NCBI RefSeq assembly: GCF_036702645.1
Contig: NZ_JAUBUO010000016.1
Location: 1 to 28,185, forward strand
DNA: 28,185 nucleotides
Reading direction: 5' to 3'
Origin: Microcoleus sp. Aus8_D1
Lineage (GTDB): Bacteria > Cyanobacteriota > Cyanobacteriia > Cyanobacteriales > Microcoleaceae
The notes beneath the pieces are model-generated. The model saw nothing but the letters and a program-made list of their open reading frames with translations. It had not been told where the DNA came from and did no database searches. Every line of letters starts with the position of its first letter. The stretch's first letter is position 1. Made by a program: the position numbers and the translations under genes. Positions 2,533 to 23,547 of the stretch are shown here, piece by piece.

Positions 2533-2615
2533 GCCTTTGTCAACCATCTATGCCTAACAGAATTTTGGGATATTTTTTATATTTGCCAGGTCAAATATTG
2601 AGATAATTTCAGAAT

Positions 2616-2808
2616 TTGTAGGGGCAGGTTCACCAACAATTCATGGCACAAACAAATAATATTGTCAACCCGCCCCACCCAACAGACAATCAAAATGTAC
2701 CAGAAATTTATTGGTAAGATGTTAATCTGAATTTATCGTGTGGTGGGGGCGGGTTTTTGTAAATTATTTGTGGGTTTTAGAGATGGTTGGTGAACCCGCC
2801 CCTACAGG
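2616..2808. repeat. REP/BIME-like nested palindromic element, copy 1 (about 193 bp)
   Basis: Outer arms TGTAGGGGCAGGTTCACC and GGTGAACCCGCCCCTACAGG; inner arms AACCCGCCCCACCC and GGTGGGGGCGGGTT. GTAG head. Preceded by a 55-bp spacer that is itself repeated. Confidence 0.85.
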
Positions 2809-2863
2809 ATTATCGGATATTTTTTTGTATTTGCCAGGTCAAATATTGAGATAATTTCAGAAT

Positions 2864-3056
2864 TTGTAGGGGCGGGTTCACCAACAATTCATGGCAAAAA
2901 TGAATGATGTTGTAAACCCGCCCCACCCAACAGACAATCAAAATGTACCAAAAATTTATTGGGTAAGATGTTGATGTGAATTTATCGTGTGGTGGGGGCG
3001 GGTTTGTGAAATTGTTGGTCTGTTTTGTAGATGGTTGGTGAACCCACCCCTACAGG
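2864..3056. repeat. REP/BIME-like nested palindromic element, copy 2 (tandem with copy 1, includes the 55-bp spacer)
   Basis: Near-identical to copy 1; the preceding spacer gtatttgccaggtcaaatattgagataatttcagaattt (inside the 55-bp inter-copy spacer 2809-2863) is duplicated at 2563-2615. Confidence 0.85.
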
Positions 3057-3091
3057 CTGTATAATTATAATGTTGTATTTTTACAAAAATC

Positions 3092-3652
3092 ATGAAATAC
3101 AATCCTCATATCCATCATCGCCGTTCTATTCGTCTACCAGGATACGACTATAGCCAATCAGGTGCATATTTTGTAACAATTTGTATTTGGCAACGTGAAT
3201 GTTTATTAAGTGAGATTCAAGAGGGGAATGTTTTATTAAGCCGCTACGGTGAAGTCGTTAACTTTAATTGGTTTAATCTCACAAGGGTGTATCCTCATAT
3301 TGAATTAGATTCCTTTGTGATTATGCCAAATCATATTCATGGAATTATTCTCATAAAACAACGGAATAAACGTCAGGGTTTATCGGAAATTGTGAGAGGT
3401 TTAAAAACCTTTTCTTCCCGGCGGATCAATCAAATACGTTCTGTTTCACAAATACCTGTATGGCAAAGGGGTTATTATGAACATATTATTCGCAATGAGG
3501 CAACATTCTCGAAAATTCAGGAATATATTATAAATAATCCGTTTAAGTGGGAAATGGATGAAATGCACCCATCACAAAAGTTTTACTATTCTAATAAAAT
3601 TGATATTAAATTAGATAGTGAAAATGTATTGCCGATGAATTTATCATTATAG
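3092..3652 (+). CDS. REP-associated tyrosine transposase (RAYT, TnpA_REP; IS200/IS605-like Y1 HUH enzyme)
   Basis: N-terminus HRRSIRLPGYDYSQSGAYFVTICI, HUH motif NHIHGIIL and catalytic-Tyr motif WQRGYYEHIIRNE. Flanked on both sides by REP-like palindromes. Confidence 0.85.
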   Translation: MKYNPHIHHRRSIRLPGYDYSQSGAYFVTICIWQRECLLSEIQEGNVLLSRYGEVVNFNWFNLTRVYPHIELDSFVIMPNHIHGIILIKQRNKRQGLSEIVRGLKTFSSRRINQIRSVSQIPVWQRGYYEHIIRNEATFSKIQEYIINNPFKWEMDEMHPSQKFYYSNKIDIKLDSENVLPMNLSL

Positions 3653-3662
3653 TAACCCAAAT

Positions 3663-3853
3663 CTGTAGGGGCGGGTTCACCAATAACTCATGGCAAAAAT
3701 GAATGATATTGTAAACCCGCCCCACCCAACGAACAATTAAAATGTACGATAAATTTATTGGTGATATGTTGATGTGAATTTATCGTGGGGTGGGGGCGGG
3801 TTTGTGAGATTGTTGGTCTGTTTTGTAGATGGTTGGTGAACCCGCCCCTACAG
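3663..3853. repeat. REP/BIME-like nested palindromic element, copy 3
   Basis: Same outer and inner arms as copies 1 and 2. Confidence 0.85.
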
Positions 3854-3896
3854 TATTTGGGATGTTTTTTTGTTTAAAATATAGATGGAATTTTAA

Positions 3897-4090
3897 GGTG
3901 GGTGGGGGCGGGTTCACCCACCATCTATCGGGAAAATGAATGATATTGTAAACCCGCCCCCACCCAACGAACAATTAAAATGTACGATTGATTTATTGGT
4001 AAGATGTTGATGTGAATTTATCGTGGGGTGGGGGCGGGTTTGTGAGATTGTTTGTGGGTTTCAGAGATGTCGGCGAACCCGCCCCTACAG
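3897..4090. repeat. REP/BIME-like nested palindromic element, copy 4 (variant left arm GGTGGGTGGGGGCGGGTTCACCC)
   Basis: Shares the inner arms and the right outer arm CGAACCCGCCCCTACAGG. Confidence 0.8.
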
Positions 4091-4148
4091 GATTTTGGGA
4101 TGTTTGTTTGGAAATTCATTGGTTAAATATTTATGTAATTTAATTGTC

Positions 4149-4339
4149 TGTAGGGGCGGGTTCACCAACAATTTATGGCACAAACAAATAATATTGTAAA
4201 CCCGCCCCCACCCAACAGACAATTAAAATGTACGATGAATTTATTGGTAAGATGTTGATGTAAATTTATCGTGTGGTGGGGGCGGGTTTGTGAGATTGTT
4301 TGTGGGTTTCAGAGATGTCGGCGAACCCGCCCCTACAGG
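4149..4339. repeat. REP/BIME-like nested palindromic element, copy 5
   Basis: CTGTAGGGGCGGGTTCACCAAC ... GGCGAACCCGCCCCTACAGG. Confidence 0.85.
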
Positions 4340-4392
4340 ATTTGGGGATGTTTTTTTTATTTTATTAGTTCAATAATATCAATAATCTGCGG

Positions 4393-4620
4393 TTAAAAAT
4401 CGGGTTCCGCACCCAAAAGCTCGATCGCCAAATCCATCTGTTCCTTCCCCCGCGCCAGAAAACCTTCGCACTCCTGCAAACACTCTACAGCCACCGCAAA
4501 CTGCTCAAAAACCTCTTCTAGTGGCAATTCTCCCGACTCCACCCGATCGATAATTGCTTCAATGCGATCGACCGTTTGCTCGTAATTCCAGTCAGACTGG
4601 CGCAATTTCGACTTAACCAT
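4393..4620 (-). CDS. xseB: Exodeoxyribonuclease VII small subunit
   Basis: 75 aa; [15 protein letters not shown]...QECEGFL pattern typical of XseB. Ends 5 bp downstream of xseA. Confidence 0.85.
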
Positions 4621-7584: not shown

Positions 7585-8104
7585 GAATATCTCAATCTAT
7601 AGGTGAACGAGTAACTATCAATCCTTACTTATCATCATATATAAAAATATTTATTCTGACAAGGTTAAAATTATTCATAACAAAAATTTTTAATTTTTTA
7701 CCTTCATTTTTTTCTCTTTTTTGAGGCAGAGTCTGCCGCTCTTTATCAAAACTTTAAAAAACTACCGCTGTTGACCGCTGTATATTAAAGATTCGGTAAA
7801 ATCCTCAATTTATCGTTACGAATAAAAGCTTTAGCTGTATGGAGAAAACAGCCAGTAAATGTTGCGAAATATAAAGGAAATTTCAAGTATAGGGAAAGTT
7901 AAGTACAATCACTGATTAATGATAGCAAATCTTCGCCAAAGGCAGTTTATACTGACAGTATTGACAAATGCTGCTACTTTGATGAGCCTTCAACCTCACC
8001 TAAAAGCTGGTGACAAGCGCACACAATTCTTAATTTTCCACATAAACATGAGGAAACACCTGTTAAAGTACAAATATTTATTGCTAGATATTCTCAAACA
8101 AAAT

Positions 8105-8347
8105 GGGTTTGTAGTGAGGACTTTAGTCCGCATCAATGAAGGACTCGCATTTCTCACTACAAACCTGGGAACGATCTTCTAAAATAAAATCGGTTCGTAG
8201 TGAGGACTTTAGTCCGCATCAATCAAAGGATTTGCATTCCGAACGATCAAACCTGGGAACGATCTTCTAAAATAAAATAGGTTCGTAGTGAGGACTTTAG
8301 TCCGCATCAATCAAAGGACTAAAGTCCTCACTACAAACCTGGGAAGT
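8105..8347. repeat. 3x tandem array of a ~85-bp unit carrying the palindrome GTAGTGAGGACTTTAGTCC ... GGACTAAAGTCCTCACTAC
   Basis: Three consecutive units; the last unit is a perfect 19-bp-arm hairpin, the middle one is degenerate. Lies downstream of the prlC stop. Confidence 0.8.
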
Positions 8348-12223: not shown

Positions 12224-12341
12224 AATTAGTCCTGGACGCATGGAATTCATAAACTGGTTTTTTTACAAAAATACTTCGTCGCAGCCAGCAGAATCGGTAA
12301 AAAACCCGGTTTCTTTGGTATTTAGGCGTCCAGGACTAATT
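12224..12341. repeat. 16-bp perfect inverted-repeat pair (AATTAGTCCTGGACGC / GCGTCCAGGACTAATT) separated by about 86 bp
   Basis: Arms at 12224-12239 and 12326-12341. The right arm overlaps the stop codon of the STAND gene. Confidence 0.7.
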
Positions 12342-13730
12342 TGGTGATAACCCTTTGATATATTGCTTCAGTACAGGTGGCAAAGTGTAAAGGCTTTCCT
12401 GTTTTTCGATCGAGCAGCGTCGCGAGAGAGATTGCAATGCGTTTAGCAAATTTGATGATGATATTTGTCCGTTTTGTAGCAATTTGGCGACGTTGACTGG
12501 CTGGTTTTCTGTCGCCAACAATGACATGACTTGTTTTTCGAGTTCGGAAGTGCGATCGTACTGCTCATGTAAAACATCTTTTAAATCTTCGGGTAACAAT
12601 ATGGTATCATCTATTAATAACTCATTCGCGCCGATGCCCAACTCTTGAATCAGAGTCGCCACGCTTTTTAACCATAACGGGTTGCCTTGGTAGCGGTGAA
12701 TGAGTGCTTCGCAGTTATCGATTTCTGCTAATCCTTTATCTCTGAGGATTTCCCGTGCGGCCGCAGTGTCTAAACCAGTGAGTTGTAAAGTCCGAATGGG
12801 AGTATTTTCGCTGGTGAGTTGAGGAACTTCTTTCGGCGGTTCCCAACCGATTAGCAGAAAGCAACTTTGATGGGATAATGTCTCTATTTGTTTGAATAAG
12901 GAGCGATATTCTTCGTATTCGGGTTTATACTTTCCTGCCAATTCGCCGCTACAGAAAAGGTTGTGAACGTCATCTAAGACTATTAAACAGCGATGGTTTT
13001 GTAAATATTTAATCAGCGGTAAGCGTTTCTGGTTGTTTGAGGATGAATCTTGTTTTTCTGACTGGGAAAAAAGCTGTATTAGGTTAGATTTAAATTTATC
13101 GATGGTGGGGAATTCGTCTAGGGTGCACCAAACTGCGTATTCAAACTCGTCTTTGATTTGTTTTACGAGTTGTACTGCTAGGGATGTTTTGCCGATGCCG
13201 AGTCGGCCGGTGAGGGTGATAAGGCGGCAGTTTTGTTGTAGAATCCAGGTTGTGAGGGTTTGGAGTTGAGGAGTGCGATCGAAGAAGTCGCCCAACTCCG
13301 GCATTTCGCTTAAATCTTGATGTAAAGTTTTAGTTTGTTTTGGGTTAGATGTTTCGTCATTATCTGGATGTGACGTTGATATATCTGGGGGGTGTCTTCC
13401 TTCTCCACAGGTATTAAAATTACCACTGATGTGTTGTTCTATGACGTTTTGTGTAAAGCTTGAAACATTAGAGACTTGAAACCTTTGAATTGCCGAGCGA
13501 AAATTCTTTTTATTGACATTTTCCCCCAACTCCTCTGAAAGTAATTGCCATAATTCCGAAGCCGCATTCCTAACACGACTTTCAGAACAGTCAAAGTCTT
13601 TGGCTACGTGCTTGTATGTCTCGTGTTGTACAGTTCCTTTCAGTACCGCCTCTTGTAAATCATCAAGGTGTTGACCCGTTTTCTCGAAGACTATGCGATC
13701 GGCGAAGTTTAACATTTCTTTGAGATTCAT
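12336..13730 (-). CDS. Short STAND (NB-ARC-like) NTPase with the cyanobacterial N-terminal HTH-like domain and no C-terminal repeat array
   Basis: Walker A LTGRLGIGKTSLAVQLV; Walker B-like CLIVLDDVHN. The N-terminus (LQEAVLKG...YKHVAKDF..SESRVRNAASELWQLLSEELGENVNKKNFRSAIQRF) matches the conserved N-domain of cyanobacterial NB-ARC/WD40 proteins. Confidence 0.85.
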   Translation of the reverse strand: MNLKEMLNFADRIVFEKTGQHLDDLQEAVLKGTVQHETYKHVAKDFDCSESRVRNAASELWQLLSEELGENVNKKNFRSAIQRFQVSNVSSFTQNVIEQHISGNFNTCGEGRHPPDISTSHPDNDETSNPKQTKTLHQDLSEMPELGDFFDRTPQLQTLTTWILQQNCRLITLTGRLGIGKTSLAVQLVKQIKDEFEYAVWCTLDEFPTIDKFKSNLIQLFSQSEKQDSSSNNQKRLPLIKYLQNHRCLIVLDDVHNLFCSGELAGKYKPEYEEYRSLFKQIETLSHQSCFLLIGWEPPKEVPQLTSENTPIRTLQLTGLDTAAAREILRDKGLAEIDNCEALIHRYQGNPLWLKSVATLIQELGIGANELLIDDTILLPEDLKDVLHEQYDRTSELEKQVMSLLATENQPVNVAKLLQNGQISSSNLLNALQSLSRRCSIEKQESLYTLPPVLKQYIKGLSPN

Positions 13731-16372: not shown

Positions 16373-16507
16373 AGGATGCCCAAAAAAATGCTAAATATAT
16401 GGTCTCTTGGACTTTATGCTGAAAACGTAAATGAGTGGGGAAGTTTTCGACTCTATGATGAGTTTATTAGTTATATCCTTTCCCTGATTAGCGATTTAAA
16501 TGTGTAG

Positions 16508-16575
16508 TACGATCGCCCCTCACACCAAATACCCAACACTGCGATGATTCTACCAAGAGCGATCGCCCTTTCTAT
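16508..16575. repeat. Roughly 65-bp direct repeat R' (partner at 17482-17550)
   Basis: cccctcacaccaaatacccaacactgcgatgattctaccaagagcgatcgccc versus cccctcacagcaaataccaaacagtacgatgattgtagccagagcgatcgccc. Confidence 0.75.
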
Positions 16576-17465: not shown

Positions 17466-17481
17466 GGCTTTTCCAAGGGAG

Positions 17482-17550
17482 CGCGAGATCCCCTCACAGC
17501 AAATACCAAACAGTACGATGATTGTAGCCAGAGCGATCGCCCTTCAGACT
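17482..17550. repeat. Roughly 65-bp direct repeat R (partner at 16508-16575)
   Basis: See the partner repeat. Confidence 0.75.
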
Positions 17551-17639: not shown

Positions 17640-17933
17640 CTAATGCAAAAACTTGCCAACTTGATATTCGCGACTTTCGGCGATCGGCATTTGCAAATCC
17701 CCCATTTTGGCATCCAACTCATCGATTGTGCTTTGCTGCACCGACTTCCACTGTTCTTTAGTTTCCCAGCGAATCAACATCACCACCTCATTTTCCACCG
17801 CATCCACCCAAACTTCTTTGCCCAAAAAACCGGGGAAACTTCTTAATCCGGCCGTCCAAACTTCTTCATCTCGCAGAATAAACTGTTCCCATTTTTCCGG
17901 AGGTACTTTAAATCTCAGCCACTCAATTACCAT
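17640..17933 (-). CDS. Small hypothetical protein (97 aa), possibly ABM/Dabb-like
   Basis: MVIEWLRFKVPPEKWEQFILRDEEVW...VVMLIRWETKEQW pattern resembles antibiotic-biosynthesis-monooxygenase-like small proteins; tentative. Confidence 0.45.
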   Translation of the reverse strand: MVIEWLRFKVPPEKWEQFILRDEEVWTAGLRSFPGFLGKEVWVDAVENEVVMLIRWETKEQWKSVQQSTIDELDAKMGDLQMPIAESREYQVGKFLH

Positions 17934-17954
17934 ATTATTTTAGATTGTATATTT

Positions 17955-18125
17955 TAGATTTTGTAGGGTGCGTCAGGCACAAAATGATGGGTATGTCGTC
18001 TCAGCTTCATTCCTGACGCACCTACAAAACTTCGGGAATAAATCATTAGTGCGTAGCCGCCACATTCCTGACGCACCTACAAAACTTGGTGAATAAATCA
18101 TTAGTCCGCAGTCGCCACATTCTGA
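17955..18125. repeat. Second REP-like palindromic family (GTAGGGTGCGTCAGG / CCTGACGCACCTAC), one forward arm and two reverse arms with a 55-bp tandem duplication
   Basis: Arms at 17962-17977, 18012-18026 and 18067-18081. Confidence 0.8.
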
Positions 18126-18169
18126 CAGTAAAAGCACCCTCAAATAACTCCAGCTTTCAGCTAGGTCAA

Positions 18170-20362
18170 TTAATCGTTACCGATCGCAATTTTAACTATC
18201 AACTCAGTTCCCTGTCCCGGACGAGAAACACACTGCAACTCACCGCCATGCTTTTCTACTACCAAATGCTGGGATATTGCCAATCCCAAACCAGTGCTCG
18301 TTTCCTGACACTTCGTAGTAAATAAAGGGTCAAAGATGCAGCGGACAACTTCTTCAGTCATGCCAGGGCCGTTGTCGCTAATGGCGATCGCCACTTGGCT
18401 CTCCCCGATCGCGGATGTCCGAATCCGAATTTCAGGATATAATATTTCAGATGCCGAGCCTCCCGCAGACAACAAAGACTGATTTTGCATTGTACCATAT
18501 TTTTCCGGATTTCTGCCCCCTTCTTCCAAAGCATCGATCGCATTTGTCAACAAGTGCATGAACACTTGATTTAACTGTCCCGGATAGCAGCGGACTCGCG
18601 GCAAATTCCCGTATTCCTTAACTAGAGAAATTCCCGGGCGTCCCCCTTTAGCTTGCAGGCGATTTTGCAAGATCAGCACAGTGCTGTCCAAACCTTCGTG
18701 GATATCCGCAAGCTTCATTTCAGGTTCGTCGGTACGCGAGAACAAGCGGAGCGATCGCACCACATCCCGAATTCTCTCCGAACCGACTTTCATTGAATTT
18801 AGCAGTTTTGGTAAGTCTTTTTTGATGAAGTCTAAGTCTAATTCTTCCATCAAATCTTGAATTTCCGGAGCTGGATCGGGATAATATTTTTGGTAAAGGT
18901 CGATCGAGCGCAGCAGTTCTTGAATGTAGCCTGTGGCGTGGCTGACATTGCCAGAAATAAAACTAACTGGATTATTAATTTCGTGCGCTATTCCTGCTAC
19001 CAACTCGCCCAGAGATGACATTTTTTCTGTTTGAATCAGTTGAGTTTGAGTTTGCCGCAAAACTAACAGCGTCTGCTCTAGTTTCGCCGCTTCCTGGCGC
19101 AGACGTTCTTCCGATTCTTGCAAAGCCAACAGAGACTGTTTGCTTTCGGTAATGTCCAATCCCACAAATACCGCAGACGTATTTTTTTGATATTTTTGAG
19201 CGACAATTAAATAAGTTTTATTTTCTCCTCTGATGTTCGCTATTACTTCTTGAGATGTTTTGTTTTTCGAGCTGGCAAAAAAATCGTATACTAAATCGTT
19301 AAATTTGGGACTTGTATCTAAAAAACCTACTTTTTGACCCGTAAATAGTTCCGCAGGCATTTGGTAAGCGCTAGCTAAATGTCGGTTTACTCCCAAGTAG
19401 CGCAAATCGGAACTTACCCAAGAAACTAATCCGGGCACGGCATCCAAGACGGCTTGAAGTTGCTCTTTCGCCTCTAAAAGGGCTGATTCTGCTGCGAGGC
19501 GAGCCCAAATATCGCGGGCGATCGCACAGCAGTATTCGCGCCCGTCGTATTCTAAATAATTGACTTGAACTTCGACGGGAAAACTGGCGCCGTCTTTGGC
19601 TTTGTAACTGGTTTCAAAAGTCAAGTTGCTTTGCTGCTTGAGTTGAACCCAGTATTCCGGCCAATCCGCTGCTGACAACTCGGAATCGATGTCGCTCAGT
19701 CTCAGGTTTAGCAGTTCCGATTCCGAGTAGCCTCCCCGATCGCAAGCGGCTTTGTTCGCGTAGCAAATTTGACCGTCTGAGTTAGTAAAAAAAACTGTAT
19801 CAGCAGCATTGTCGAGGGCAATTTGAGTTAGTTGTAGTTTTGTTTCTAACTGCTTGCTTTTGGCCTCGGGCGTCCATGTATTGTAGCAATTTGTTACAGC
19901 TATCTTTTCGGCCAACAAGATCAAACCGCCGATCGCACCACAGCTATTTTTCCACGGCCAAAATACCCATTTGACCGGCGCGCCGACCTCACTTTCGATT
20001 TGTCCGGCTACAGATGCGGTCGCTCGCCCTGCCACAAACTCGCTGTATTCCAAAACTCCCGCCAAACAAGCGCGGGCATTTTGCTGCCAATATTCGGGGA
20101 GATTCGGGAATAATTCCCAATGACTTCTGCCGAGCGCCTCACAGCCACCGAACCCGCAATCTGTTTCCCAGCGACGGGAAACCGACAGATAGCGCATTTC
20201 ACAATCTACCATTGCCACGGCGTCAGCGGAGCGCTCCACCAACCGCCGAAATCCCTCTTTACTCTCAGACACGGCGGCCTCTGGGGGTTGGTGGGCGATC
20301 GGGATTGTCCCGTCGGCATACCTTCCCAGTCGAATGTTTTGATTAACTGGCTTAGTTTGCAC
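18170..20362 (-). CDS. Multi-PAS sensor histidine kinase (HisKA + HATPase_c)
   Basis: H-box AGIAHEINNP; G-boxes DNGPGM and GLGLAI; several PAS-like segments. Confidence 0.9.
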   Translation of the reverse strand: MQTKPVNQNIRLGRYADGTIPIAHQPPEAAVSESKEGFRRLVERSADAVAMVDCEMRYLSVSRRWETDCGFGGCEALGRSHWELFPNLPEYWQQNARACLAGVLEYSEFVAGRATASVAGQIESEVGAPVKWVFWPWKNSCGAIGGLILLAEKIAVTNCYNTWTPEAKSKQLETKLQLTQIALDNAADTVFFTNSDGQICYANKAACDRGGYSESELLNLRLSDIDSELSAADWPEYWVQLKQQSNLTFETSYKAKDGASFPVEVQVNYLEYDGREYCCAIARDIWARLAAESALLEAKEQLQAVLDAVPGLVSWVSSDLRYLGVNRHLASAYQMPAELFTGQKVGFLDTSPKFNDLVYDFFASSKNKTSQEVIANIRGENKTYLIVAQKYQKNTSAVFVGLDITESKQSLLALQESEERLRQEAAKLEQTLLVLRQTQTQLIQTEKMSSLGELVAGIAHEINNPVSFISGNVSHATGYIQELLRSIDLYQKYYPDPAPEIQDLMEELDLDFIKKDLPKLLNSMKVGSERIRDVVRSLRLFSRTDEPEMKLADIHEGLDSTVLILQNRLQAKGGRPGISLVKEYGNLPRVRCYPGQLNQVFMHLLTNAIDALEEGGRNPEKYGTMQNQSLLSAGGSASEILYPEIRIRTSAIGESQVAIAISDNGPGMTEEVVRCIFDPLFTTKCQETSTGLGLAISQHLVVEKHGGELQCVSRPGQGTELIVKIAIGND

Positions 20363-21907: not shown

Positions 21908-22453
21908 TCAACAGAGTTTGAGATTATTTGGCGGCACCATATCTACCAACCAAACTCTGTTATCCGAGCAGTAAAATGTATGGCCGTCCTGTTGCATTGC
22001 TGCGGCATCTACAGCCAAGACTGCCGGGATGCCGTGTCTGGCACCTACTTTACGCGCTGTCTGAATGTCCGCCGACAAATGAACGTGATGCCGCGACATT
22101 TTCCTAATTCCTTGACTCAGAATAGACTCGACGGCAGTCCTACCTGTTCCGTGATATAAAATATCTGGGGGAACAGCAGGTTCTAACTGCAAGTCAACCT
22201 CTACACTGTGTCCTTGGTTGGCACGAATGAGAGTGCCCGTTTCGTCGAAGGAAAAGCGCTGTTTGTCGTTTTGCGCGACTACTTGCTTGAGTTCTGCAAG
22301 CTGAAGGGGGAAGTTATTTTTTTGGCAGGCATCGAGGAGTTCGCTAACAGGAACCCAGCCTCCCGGCGCGAGTTGAATGCCGATGCGCGAGGGCGCGTGG
22401 CGCAGGTGTTTGCTGAGATATCTGCTGATTTTTCTTAATCGGGTATCATTCAT
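21908..22453 (-). CDS. kptA: RNA 2'-phosphotransferase Tpt1/KptA family protein
   Basis: LSKHLRHAP...GGWVPVSELL; YHGTGRTAVESILSQGIRKMSRHHVHLS (HGT...RxHVHLS) diagnostic of Tpt1/KptA. Confidence 0.9.
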   Translation of the reverse strand: MNDTRLRKISRYLSKHLRHAPSRIGIQLAPGGWVPVSELLDACQKNNFPLQLAELKQVVAQNDKQRFSFDETGTLIRANQGHSVEVDLQLEPAVPPDILYHGTGRTAVESILSQGIRKMSRHHVHLSADIQTARKVGARHGIPAVLAVDAAAMQQDGHTFYCSDNRVWLVDMVPPNNLKLC

Positions 22454-22597
22454 GATTTTACTTAAATTATTGAGTTATTTCGTGGGTAGATCTGGTTTAT
22501 TTAATCTGTTTGTCCTGCGAGGAGAAGGATTGAGTGGAATAATGCCTGTAAACTCAAGTCTGAAATTATTTGTATTTCTCGTTTATAGCAGAATCTC

Positions 22598-22678
22598 GAT
22601 CCCCCTAAATCCCCCTTAAGAAGGGGGACTTTGAGAATGCTCCTGTCCCCCCTTTTTAAGGGGGGTTAGGGGGGATCT
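22598..22678. repeat. G/C-run nested hairpin cluster (CCCCCTTaagAAGGGGG; CCCCCCTTtttAAGGGGGG; outer GATCCCCCTAAATCCCCC / GGGGGGTTAGGGGGGATC)
   Basis: Direct reading; in the intergenic gap between the 3' end of the methyltransferase gene and the kptA upstream region. Confidence 0.7.
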
Positions 22679-22748
22679 AGACTAAGCTAGAAGCGAGATT
22701 ACTAATTAATTTTAGTCTTAAATTGACACGAATGTGAGCTAACTAATC

Positions 22749-22815
22749 GTAGGGTGCGTCAGGGGGAAAATTGTTGAGCAAGCAGTCACAATATTCATTC
22801 CTGACGCACCCTACA
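22749..22815. repeat. REP-like hairpin of the second family (GTAGGGTGCGTCAGGG ... CCTGACGCACCCTAC), 16-bp arms and 35-nt loop
   Basis: Same arms as the 17955-18125 element. Confidence 0.8.
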
Positions 22816-22851
22816 ATAGCTTTTGATGATTATTATCAAAAACTCTGCTTT

Positions 22852-23547
22852 CTACTTTGGGATAACTCCGCCAAAAATAGCAAAATTGAGATGGCGCCAG
22901 TGACAAGCTGCGTCTGCAAAACCCGCTGCTGCCAGCCACTTGGTTTGCTCTTCCACAGAGGAAGGAATATCTTCTTTTAGATAGCTGTTAAAACACGCTG
23001 CATCGTCTTCTCCATTAGCTTTGATGTACTGCCGCCACAAATGTTCGTATTGCTCTGTCAGCTTTGGGGTAGCACCTGTGACAATATCTCGGATTAGCAA
23101 GATTCCCCCGGCATTCATTGAGTGAAAAAGTTTGTGAAATAGCTGTTGTTTCCCGGCGCTGTCTAGGTGGTGGATTGCCAACCCTGAAACTACCAAATCG
23201 TAACCGCTGCCGAAATCATATTCTGCGAAATTTCCCTGTTGCAATGTCAGCCGATGTCCGAAATTTGACAAGTTGGTTTGACAAACTTTTAGCATATTTT
23301 CCGCCATGTCAAAGGCTGTGATGTTTGCTTGAGGAAATGCTGGCAAAATCATTGCCGACAGTATGCCAGTTCCGGCGCCTAAATCTAGAACTTTGATGTT
23401 AGCATGGGTTTCAAAATCTATTAATTGCAATATTATTTCGTGTTGCTCGCGATAGTGCGGAATCAGGCGGGGAATTAAACTATCATAATCAAATGCTCTT
23501 TGTTCAAATTGCTGGCGTACATCGTCTAAATTCCTAGATAAATTCAC
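22852..23547 (-). CDS. Class I SAM-dependent methyltransferase
   Basis: Motif I VLDLGAGTGILS; post-I acidic FDMAE; Rossmann-fold pattern. Confidence 0.85.
   Translation of the reverse strand: MNLSRNLDDVRQQFEQRAFDYDSLIPRLIPHYREQHEIILQLIDFETHANIKVLDLGAGTGILSAMILPAFPQANITAFDMAENMLKVCQTNLSNFGHRLTLQQGNFAEYDFGSGYDLVVSGLAIHHLDSAGKQQLFHKLFHSMNAGGILLIRDIVTGATPKLTEQYEHLWRQYIKANGEDDAACFNSYLKEDIPSSVEEQTKWLAAAGFADAACHWRHLNFAIFGGVIPK

Follow-up and report, generated by a model that had tools for sequence, protein, structure and literature searches.

Two GTAGGG-headed hairpins in a Microcoleus contig as probable old copies of a dispersed REP-type element with its transposase encoded elsewhere

The stretch of DNA analysed here (the window) comprises 28,185 nucleotides of Microcoleus sp. 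Aus8_D1 (NCBI RefSeq assembly GCF_036702645.1, contig NZ_JAUBUO010000016.1, positions 1 to 28,185). It carries one gene for a transposase associated with repetitive extragenic palindromes (REPs), i.e. a REP-associated tyrosine transposase (RAYT), with a palindromic repeat family around it, GTAGGGGCGGGTTCACC. A second palindrome occurs at two other places, referred to as locus A (17963-18150) and locus B (22749-22814). Both families start with GTAGGG, as the first-pass annotation of the sequence had pointed out. Is the second palindrome moved by the same RAYT, does it depend on another RAYT encoded elsewhere, or are these two hairpins of local function only? From the comparisons described below it is likely that the two loci are old copies of a non-autonomous element of the REP type or of the type of REP doublets forming hairpins (REPINs), and that the cognate RAYT, related to that of E. 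coli, is not encoded in the window.

The 15-mer GTAGGGTGCGTCAGG has three exact sites in the window, at 17963-17977 (+), 22749-22763 (+) and 22800-22814 (-). Three matches were reached in none of 100 dinucleotide-preserving shuffles. The latter two sites are the arms of locus B, whose family orientation is that of the minus strand, as for the genes on either side.

22738-22748, minus strand: conserved 3' tail of locus B, GATTAGTTAGC (family consensus GGTTAGTTAG), from flank comparison and profile
22749-22814, minus strand: core of locus B, perfect 15-nt arms GTAGGGTGCGTCAGG and CCTGACGCACCCTAC with a 36-nt spacer, a complete REP-type hairpin
22815-22820, minus strand: conserved 5' flank of locus B, GCTATT (family consensus AGTTATT), from flank comparison and profile

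With its conserved flanks the whole element at locus B covers 22738-22820. Its description as a clean hairpin in the first-pass annotation holds, with the end at 22814 and not at 22815. As single-stranded DNA (ssDNA) it folds with -22 kcal/mol on either strand (z -9.9 and -8.0), and the folds over both loci of the window have z values of -6.3 to -9.9. Locus B lies between the stop of a methyltransferase gene (22852-23547) and the start of a Tpt1/KptA gene (21908-22453), both on the minus strand.

The distribution of the arm was studied by scanning one genome per species (596 Gb) for the GTAGGGTGCGTCAGG 15-mer. The arm is present in at least 120 blocks, at least 82 of which are cyanobacterial by title, mostly from Microcoleus, Tychonema and other Oscillatoriales, and the matches listed also include a Chroococcales metagenome-assembled genome (MAG) and Anabaena sp. 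UHCC 0451. The palindrome is thus dispersed and not confined to two sites, the outcome under which the first-pass annotation would have taken it for simple local hairpins or terminators. Among the matches listed, most non-cyanobacterial blocks hold single matches, as chance predicts for a 15-mer in 596 Gb, and three of them (L070, L075 and L100; L numbers denote individual loci) hold hairpin pairs resembling related repeat families. At least five blocks of Microcoleus Aus8_D2 and at least four of LEGE 07076 are among the matches listed; the window has two loci in 28 kb.

Nearly all arms in the cyanobacterial blocks belong to hairpins of one kind, about 66 nt long, and every arm starts with GTAG. 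The matches listed contain 77 left-right arm pairs, and the loop between the 14-nt arms measures 35-37 nt in 62 of them; two copies (L053, L080) have a 3-nt loop. Many copies are arranged in tandem arrays with periods of about 74-88 nt. A common spacer sequence and asymmetric flanks are found in 23 copies from several genera, and in the flank comparison 23 of 71 hairpins show at most two mismatches to the flank GGTTAGTTA. A profile for nhmmer (length 89) was prepared from 22 copies of other genomes only, the window being left out. Its consensus reads TTAGTTATT-GTAGGGTGCGTCAGG-TCTGAATGTTTTGATCGCAGACTAAGAATTTTCTC-CCTGACGCACCCTAC-GGTTAGTTAG. In the window the profile matched locus B once, on the minus strand over model positions 5-88 of 89 (E 1.1e-21). 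Locus A gave three matches (E 1.5e-12, 3.6e-5 and 0.0034), and there were no others. The palindrome is a second GTAG-headed REP-type family, distinct from the one around the RAYT, as had been proposed.

Matching flanks, as expected of target-site duplications, were seen in 0-1 of 71 copies at every k-mer length from 2 to 8 nt. The family is extragenic: 3% of 68 hairpins lie inside an open frame of at least 450 nt, compared with 74% of random windows from the same loci, and both loci of the window are intergenic. A literature search for 11-mers of the arm returned chance primer matches only. The palindromes of the window are copies of a small hairpin repeat, mobile over evolutionary time, that is widespread in filamentous cyanobacteria.

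The search for an enzyme that may act on this repeat leads to RAYT genes of other genomes. When the RAYT of the window was compared by tblastn with the 120 listed loci, one convincing match (L035, E 2e-5) and two weak ones (E 0.04 and 8.5) were obtained. In L035 (Microcoleus sp. SVA1_B3) a 183-aa RAYT open reading frame (ORF) at 2913-3464 on the minus strand has a hairpin of the family at 2841-2906 and two more on the other side, at 3490-3555 and 3567-3630. Over the full length of the product there is a match to E. coli TnpA_REP (PDB 4ER8; E 2.3e-42), and the NCBIfam model REP_Tyr_transpos NF047646 is matched with 188.9 bits. Its relatives are widespread in cyanobacteria. In L121 (Anabaena azotica) a RAYT 78% identical to it has TGTAGGGTGCGTCAGC...GCTGACGCACCCTAC on both sides, and at the more distant orthologs of Nostoc and Calothrix PCC 7507 the flanking repeat is the sister form GTAGGATGCGTTAGCGATAGCGTAACGCATC.

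A metagenomic sample of 80 loci of this clade (49-66% identity) gave a similar picture. A word headed by GTAGG[GT]TG lies within 300 nt of the RAYT ORF in 74 of the 80 loci, on both sides in 58, and the 11-nt head GTAGGGTGCGT is present in 36. Based on these flanking counts, GTAGGGTGCGT can be considered a signature of the E. coli-type RAYT clade. One of the 80 loci, L127, carries the CAG variant of the arm in an array of 43-nt period flanking the RAYT. Copies of the repeat thus stand on both sides of the RAYT gene in L035, L121 and L127; in the window the sole RAYT is flanked by the other family. The enzyme is common in Microcoleus. The cluster of proteins at least 90% identical to P0001, itself 84% identical to the L035 RAYT, contains Microcoleus sp. 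A003_D6, bin38, N3A4 and LEGE 07076, together with a multispecies Microcoleus entry on 40 contigs. Of these genomes, A003_D6, LEGE 07076 and N3A4 are the ones shown to have intact copies of the element as well as the RAYT. The suggestion that a second RAYT exists elsewhere in the genome therefore fits the data, since the same repeat flanks a different, E. coli-type RAYT in L035 and L121. Microcoleus sp. N3A4 has two different E. coli-type RAYTs, members of clusters P0001 and P0015, so that more than two RAYTs per Microcoleus genome are possible; the P0015 cluster includes truncated proteins of 146 aa.

These comparisons suggest the following course of events. The core of the element, about 66 nt, reads 5'-GTAGGGTGCGTCAGG, a spacer of about 36 nt and CCTGACGCACCCTAC-3', preceded in this subfamily by AGTTATT and followed by GGTTAGTTAG. 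As ssDNA it would form a hairpin with GTAG at its foot, which would be bound, hairpin and GTAG together, by a RAYT of the E. coli TnpA_REP type (HUH/Y1). The enzyme would cut at a CT dinucleotide, and the ensuing strand transfer would move or duplicate the element and build up tandem arrays. The cognate enzyme would be the 183-aa E. coli-type RAYT, encoded elsewhere in the source genome as in other Microcoleus and perhaps still active there, and locus A would later have been remodelled by a 55-bp tandem duplication. GTAG is needed for binding and cleavage by E. coli TnpA_REP, and the sequence of the hairpin matters too (Messing et al. 2012, PMC3479197). For that enzyme a pairing of A3 and G4 of GTAG with the CT of the cleavage site has been proposed (PMC3479197). 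Since the 3' CTAC of the present element pairs with its GTAG, we infer that the CT opposite A3/G4 would lie inside the element.

Locus A has a more complicated structure than locus B.

17937-17962, no strand assigned: heptamer tract ATTTTAG/ATTGTAT, resembling short tandemly repeated repetitive (STRR) sequences, adjoining the locus A arm and separating the element from the start of the ABM gene at 17933
17963-17977, minus strand: 3' arm in family orientation, CCTGACGCACCCTAC, a perfect consensus match
17978-18011, minus strand: spacer, GAATGAAG...CATCATTTTGTG as compared with GAATGAAT...CAACAATTTTCC, related to the locus B spacer and the family consensus
18008-18126, no strand assigned: 55-bp tandem repeat (TRF: period 55, 2.2 copies, 90% matches, score 196)
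18012-18025, minus strand: inner 5' arm, copy 1, GTAGGTGCGTCAGG, one G missing
18067-18080, minus strand: 5' arm, copy 2, product of the 55-bp tandem duplication (nhmmer E 3.6e-5)
18122-18149, minus strand: outermost, degenerate 5' arm, TGAGGGTGC-TTTTACT-GTCAG, with a 7-nt insertion (nhmmer E 0.0034)

The best profile match of the locus (E 1.5e-12) spans 17963-18029 on the minus strand, and the arm at 17963-17977 folds with the inner arm at 18012-18025 (-19.5 and -18.8 kcal/mol, z about -6.5). The opposite arm is present twice as CCTGACGCAC-CTAC (18012-18025 and 18067-18080), in both cases with one nucleotide of the perfect complement deleted. Each 55-bp unit combines a 5' arm with about 16 nt of spacer and a linker of 26 nt. 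The second copy of the unit is specific to the window, the arm at 18067-18080 being missing from the orthologous loci L209, L211 and L212. A third, degenerate arm at 18122-18142, CTGACAGTAAAAGCACCCTCA, is followed by the canonical 5' flank AGTTATT at 18143-18149, and locus A therefore extends to about 18150. The segment 18122-18149 is probably the original left end of the element; in the L212 ortholog one simple unit, AGTTATT-gtTTTAGGGTGCGTCAGG, stands at the corresponding end. Of the first-pass description of the palindrome, the two loci, the 55-bp duplication and the two reverse arms stand, while the extent of locus A had been drawn too short and the third arm overlooked.

Three observations on the architecture of locus A may be added. 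An insertion similar to that in its third arm (GGGTGC-TTTTACT-GTCAG, 18122-18142) occurs at the same arm position in an unrelated cyanobacterial MAG, as GGGTGCG-TTTACT-GTCAG (L088, about 60-138), which suggests a recurring sub-variant of the arm. Heptamer runs of the STRR type adjoin copies of the element also in L114, L003, L011, L078, L103, L039 and L057 (AAAATCT, TTGACTG, AATGACT, GGAATTA); this suggests a common preference for the same intergenic spots or a seeding of one kind of repeat by the other. Half-unit duplication recurs downstream of the L121 RAYT, where the element again shows one forward arm and two reverse ones. Such duplications may come about by strand transfer through a RAYT or by replication slippage at the hairpin.

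The age of the two copies was assessed at the orthologous sites of relatives. Locus A has the stop of a PAS histidine kinase gene (18170-20362) on one side and the start of an ABM-domain gene (17640-17933) on the other, both genes being on the minus strand. Orthologs of the kinase are 94% identical in L211 (a JGI metagenome contig), 88% in L209 (Microcoleus bin48), 87% in L212 (Microcoleus sp. A006_D1) and about 83% in many other Microcoleus and Tychonema. The gene order GGDEF-methyltransferase-KptA-AAA-kinase-ABM is conserved. By these orthologs and this order the window is Microcoleus-like. The site of locus A is occupied in L209, L210, L211 and L212 and the element is absent from it in L213 and L214. 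L212 has one simple unit, AGTTATT-gtTTTAGGGTGCGTCAGG...CAGCACCCTAC. L209 and L210 have the outer degenerate arm and one inner arm with another GTAG-headed element nested in the loop, and L211 has yet another insertion. Only 26 nt separate the genes in L213 (Microcoleus sp. AT9_A2), and L214 (Tychonema) has an unrelated element composed of a hairpin and heptamer repeats.

L211 and L212 retain the element, with decayed arms, at the site of locus B; L209, L213 and L214 lack it there. L209 has a different perfect palindrome there (7780-7850; 27-nt arms, GGTACGTTGTTGGGCTTTAGCCCTCTTT...), L213 has a short REP, GTAGGTGCGTAAGGCCGCACCTTAC, further on, and in L214 the intergenic region measures 17 nt. 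Among the empty sites of the two loci, one reads GCTATT|TACAAAT, a junction that is approximate, the empty sites being too diverged for placement to the nucleotide. The same intergenic spots have thus been colonised repeatedly by different palindromic elements. From presence and absence at the orthologous sites it follows that both copies are insertions in the ancestor of one Microcoleus subclade, which were then inherited, decayed or remodelled.

In the right arm of the locus B orthologs L211 (4127-4192) and L212 (7593-7660) GCTCCG replaces CTGACG, and the arms in the window equal the consensus. The 5' flank of locus B in the window differs from both L211 and L212. The perfect arms could be due to gene conversion or re-insertion restoring the palindrome, or to recombination. 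Repair or gene conversion was rejected as unproven, because a recombination breakpoint or retained ancestry, given the differing 5' flank, fits equally well.

This history bears on a reading in which the repeat is a true REP family, immobile in the source genome where its RAYT was lost or never present, so that the copies are decaying fossils kept by inheritance. Both sites are already occupied in relatives whose histidine kinase is 87-94% identical, locus A is rearranged with degenerate arms, and the 28 kb show no lineage-specific new insertion. Against it stand the arms of locus B, which match the consensus at 15 of 15 positions where the orthologous copies in L211 and L212 are degraded, together with intact copies in related Microcoleus and the occurrence of the RAYT in several of them, both of these being shown together for A003_D6, LEGE 07076 and N3A4 only. 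We regard this reading as unlikely, although it retains some weight.

The reading of the loci as copies of a REP/REPIN-type element with its RAYT elsewhere may be compared with systems already described. Like the REPs and bacterial interspersed mosaic elements (BIMEs) of E. coli with their TnpA_REP (RayT/YafM; 4ER8; Bertels group 2, Quentin subclass 2.2), the family is headed by GTAG at its 5' end, palindromic, extragenic and found in arrays. The RAYT of L035 and L121 aligns with TnpA_REP over the full length, including the HUH motif and the YI.YNP tyrosine motif, and has repeats on both sides of its gene as in the E. coli REPtron. Unlike E. coli REPs, the family has the conserved flanks AGTTATT and GGTTAGTTAG and a cyanobacterial host, and since GTAG pairs with the 3' CTAC the element is symmetric on both strands. 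The HUH motif reads NHIH in the RAYT of the family, EHMH in E. coli and DHLH in the subclass 2.2 consensus (PMC6006769); for this reason the subclass of the enzyme is not settled.

Several points weigh against such an assignment. The cognate RAYT and a high copy number are taken over to the source genome from its relatives, and the two copies, as ancient orthologous insertions, give no sign of current mobility. Classic REPs have a loop of a few nt, the present family one of about 36 nt (apart from the short-loop copies in L053 and L080), and in the family GTAG is base-paired with the 3' CTAC and does not form an unpaired foot. No biochemistry of any cyanobacterial RAYT was found in the literature searched. 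Linkage of the exact ...CAG arm to a RAYT is seen at three loci (L035, L121 and L127), the other loci having sister variants. The family does differ from classic REPs in its long spacer of constant length, its full GTAG...CTAC symmetry and its conserved flanks.

In Pseudomonas fluorescens SBW25 a REPIN is made up of two palindromic REPs, and every family there has a RAYT of its own. The present family resembles these REPINs in combining two inverted arms and a spacer into one long hairpin unit, in the occurrence of several families per genome and in its tandem and cluster arrangements (PMC3116915). It differs in that its arms are not palindromic themselves and its unit, of about 66 nt, is shorter. 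That the full 85 nt are conserved suggests that the family would replicate as a unit, in the manner of a REPIN. GTAG-tagged palindromes of filamentous cyanobacteria have been reported as GTAG-12, GTAG-15 and GTAG-16 REPs (Di Nocera et al. 2013, PMC3733652). Compared by description only, these come from Anabaena, Nostoc and Cyanothece and not from Microcoleus, and the loops of GTAG-15 are 9-15 nt as against about 36 nt in the GTAGGGTGCGTCAGG family (PMC3733652).

The family also shares features with IS200/IS605 elements (IS608, ISDra2), namely an HUH/Y1 transposase acting on ssDNA hairpins, a 5' tetranucleotide guide at the foot and the lack of target duplications, and its AGTTATT 5' flank recalls elements that insert 3' of a fixed penta- or tetranucleotide. 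Unlike them, the element has no transposase gene. Conservation of the flank, together with the one empty site GCTATT|TACAAAT, suggests target-specific insertion. It could be supposed that the long-loop elements are minimal IS200-like substrates, which would take the CT site from their own CTAC and insert 3' of a TTATT-like target as IS608 does; in a variant, the group-4 RAYT of the window would cross-mobilise them through GTAGGG. We consider this doubtful.

Another answer to the initial question is that the RAYT of the window reads the common GTAGGG head and moves both families, so that a second RAYT is unneeded.

3092-3652, plus strand: RAYT of the window, 186 aa, Pfam Y1_Tnp, surrounded by the other repeat family GTAGGGGCGGGTTCACC (2557-4362), not part of the GTAGGGTGCGTCAGG system

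This protein scores 84.9 bits on NF047646 (cutoff 80) and has no PDB match at E 0.001; the closest match in the protein search is 87% identical, and look-ups of two proteins of the window by exact sequence gave no match. Its motifs NHIH, WQ and YIINNP fit subclass 2.4 of Quentin et al. (Bertels group 4), and RAYTs of this group are common in cyanobacteria (PMC6006769, PMC5581495). It is the only RAYT in the 28 kb, both families start with GTAGGG, and GTAG is the part of the E. coli REP that is read base-specifically (PMC3479197), all of which would favour a shared enzyme. However, the sequence of the hairpin is required as well in E. coli, where randomising it abolished binding (PMC3479197), and the RAYTs of the window and L035 are only 24% identical over 103 aa. 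Homologs of the window RAYT in L206 and L207 (80-82% identity) are flanked by the same GTAGGGGCGGGTTC[AG]CC repeats (the GTAGGGGCGGG family), and no GTAGGGTGCGT was found in the surrounding 17-20 kb of either. In all three genomes this type of RAYT has GTAGGGGCGGGTTC repeats only, which indicates that each RAYT clade keeps its own repeat across genomes. Repeats headed by GTAGGGTG flank the different clade, at 74 of 80 loci and in L035 and L121. Several REP types per genome, each RAYT gene being decorated by its own repeats, have been described (PMC3733652; PMC3116915). The suggestion that the single RAYT may service both families thus runs counter to the linkage data, and we judge it very improbable.

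Two observations concern the surroundings of this RAYT. Synteny with L209 and L212 stops at about 4384, next to xseB, and since the RAYT and the 1.9-kb GTAGGGGCGGGTTCACC block (2557-4362) are located exactly at this break, the RAYT cluster may be an insertion relative to L209 and L212. Three units of a third GTAG-headed palindromic family, GGTTCGTAGTGAGGACTTTAGTCC...GGACTAAAGTCCTCACTAC, stand in an 88-bp tandem array at 8074-8345, and the family occurs also in L029, so that the window has three GTAG-headed families and one RAYT. The element nested in the locus A loop of L209 and L210 (L209, about 12330-12400), GTAGTGCG...GCGGACTTAAGTCCGCAC, is a relative of this third family.

The hairpins might also be non-mobile and serve only as terminators, attenuators or mRNA-stabilising structures of the histidine kinase and methyltransferase transcripts. 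Each locus lies directly 3' of one minus-strand gene and 5' of the next and folds strongly, and REPs are known to be co-opted for such roles (Di Nocera 2013, PMC3733652). Yet the same sequence of about 85 nt is found in unrelated contexts in many genera, RAYT genes are flanked by the element, and it is absent from the same sites in relatives. A scan of the window called no intrinsic terminator at either hairpin, owing to the 36-nt loops and the lack of a T-run after the hairpins. No Rfam family matched the window at gathering score, and no tRNA was found in it. A purely local role is hardly credible in view of these results; a secondary effect of the hairpins on upstream transcripts is possible.

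Miniature inverted-repeat transposable elements (MITEs) have also to be considered among cyanobacterial repeats. Neither the small dispersed repeats (SDRs) nor the Nezha MITEs are known to be defined by a GTAG head or by RAYT linkage. They resemble the family (SDRs: Elhai 2008) as small dispersed intergenic repeats of filamentous cyanobacteria, some of them nested, as in the L209 loop. That the family is a MITE moved by a DDE transposase, like Nezha and other cyanobacterial MITEs, as its 15-nt terminal inverted repeats, small size and dispersal might suggest, has next to no likelihood, for target-site duplications occur in 0-1 of 71 copies at each length from 2 to 8 nt, the unit in its entirety is a GTAG-headed hairpin, and copies flank a Y1/HUH transposase and not a DDE gene.

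Other features of the region were recorded in the course of the comparison. Another small repeat, GATCCCCCCTAACCCCCCTTAAAAAGGGGGG...AAGGGGGATTTAGGGGGATC, occurs once at 22595-22680 of the window and about three times in tandem in L211 (about 4220-4560). It gave the sole match of a plasmid search with the window, to a Nostoc sp. C052 plasmid (90.7% over 86 nt). The segment 12227-17640 (about 5.4 kb), with a 464-aa ORF, a YcaO cyclodehydratase gene, a nitroreductase-family gene and a gene for a Tox-PL-2 papain-fold toxin, has no counterpart in L209 and L212, where about 110 nt lie in its place and synteny is otherwise kept. The toxin gene stands between direct repeats of 55-65 nt (16506-16570 and 17480-17544).

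Genomes with several REP families, every one of them paired with a RAYT of its own, are an established finding in Pseudomonas, Stenotrophomonas and others, and this picture is here extended to Microcoleus-type cyanobacteria. In many taxa the head GTAGGGTGCGT is a mark of the E. coli-type RAYT clade and so predicts which RAYT is to be sought. The filled, decayed, rearranged and empty orthologous sites of the two copies could serve to date the insertion and decay of REPs in Microcoleus, and the long-loop, fully symmetric REP variant is testable against the model of GTAG/CT recognition derived from E. coli.

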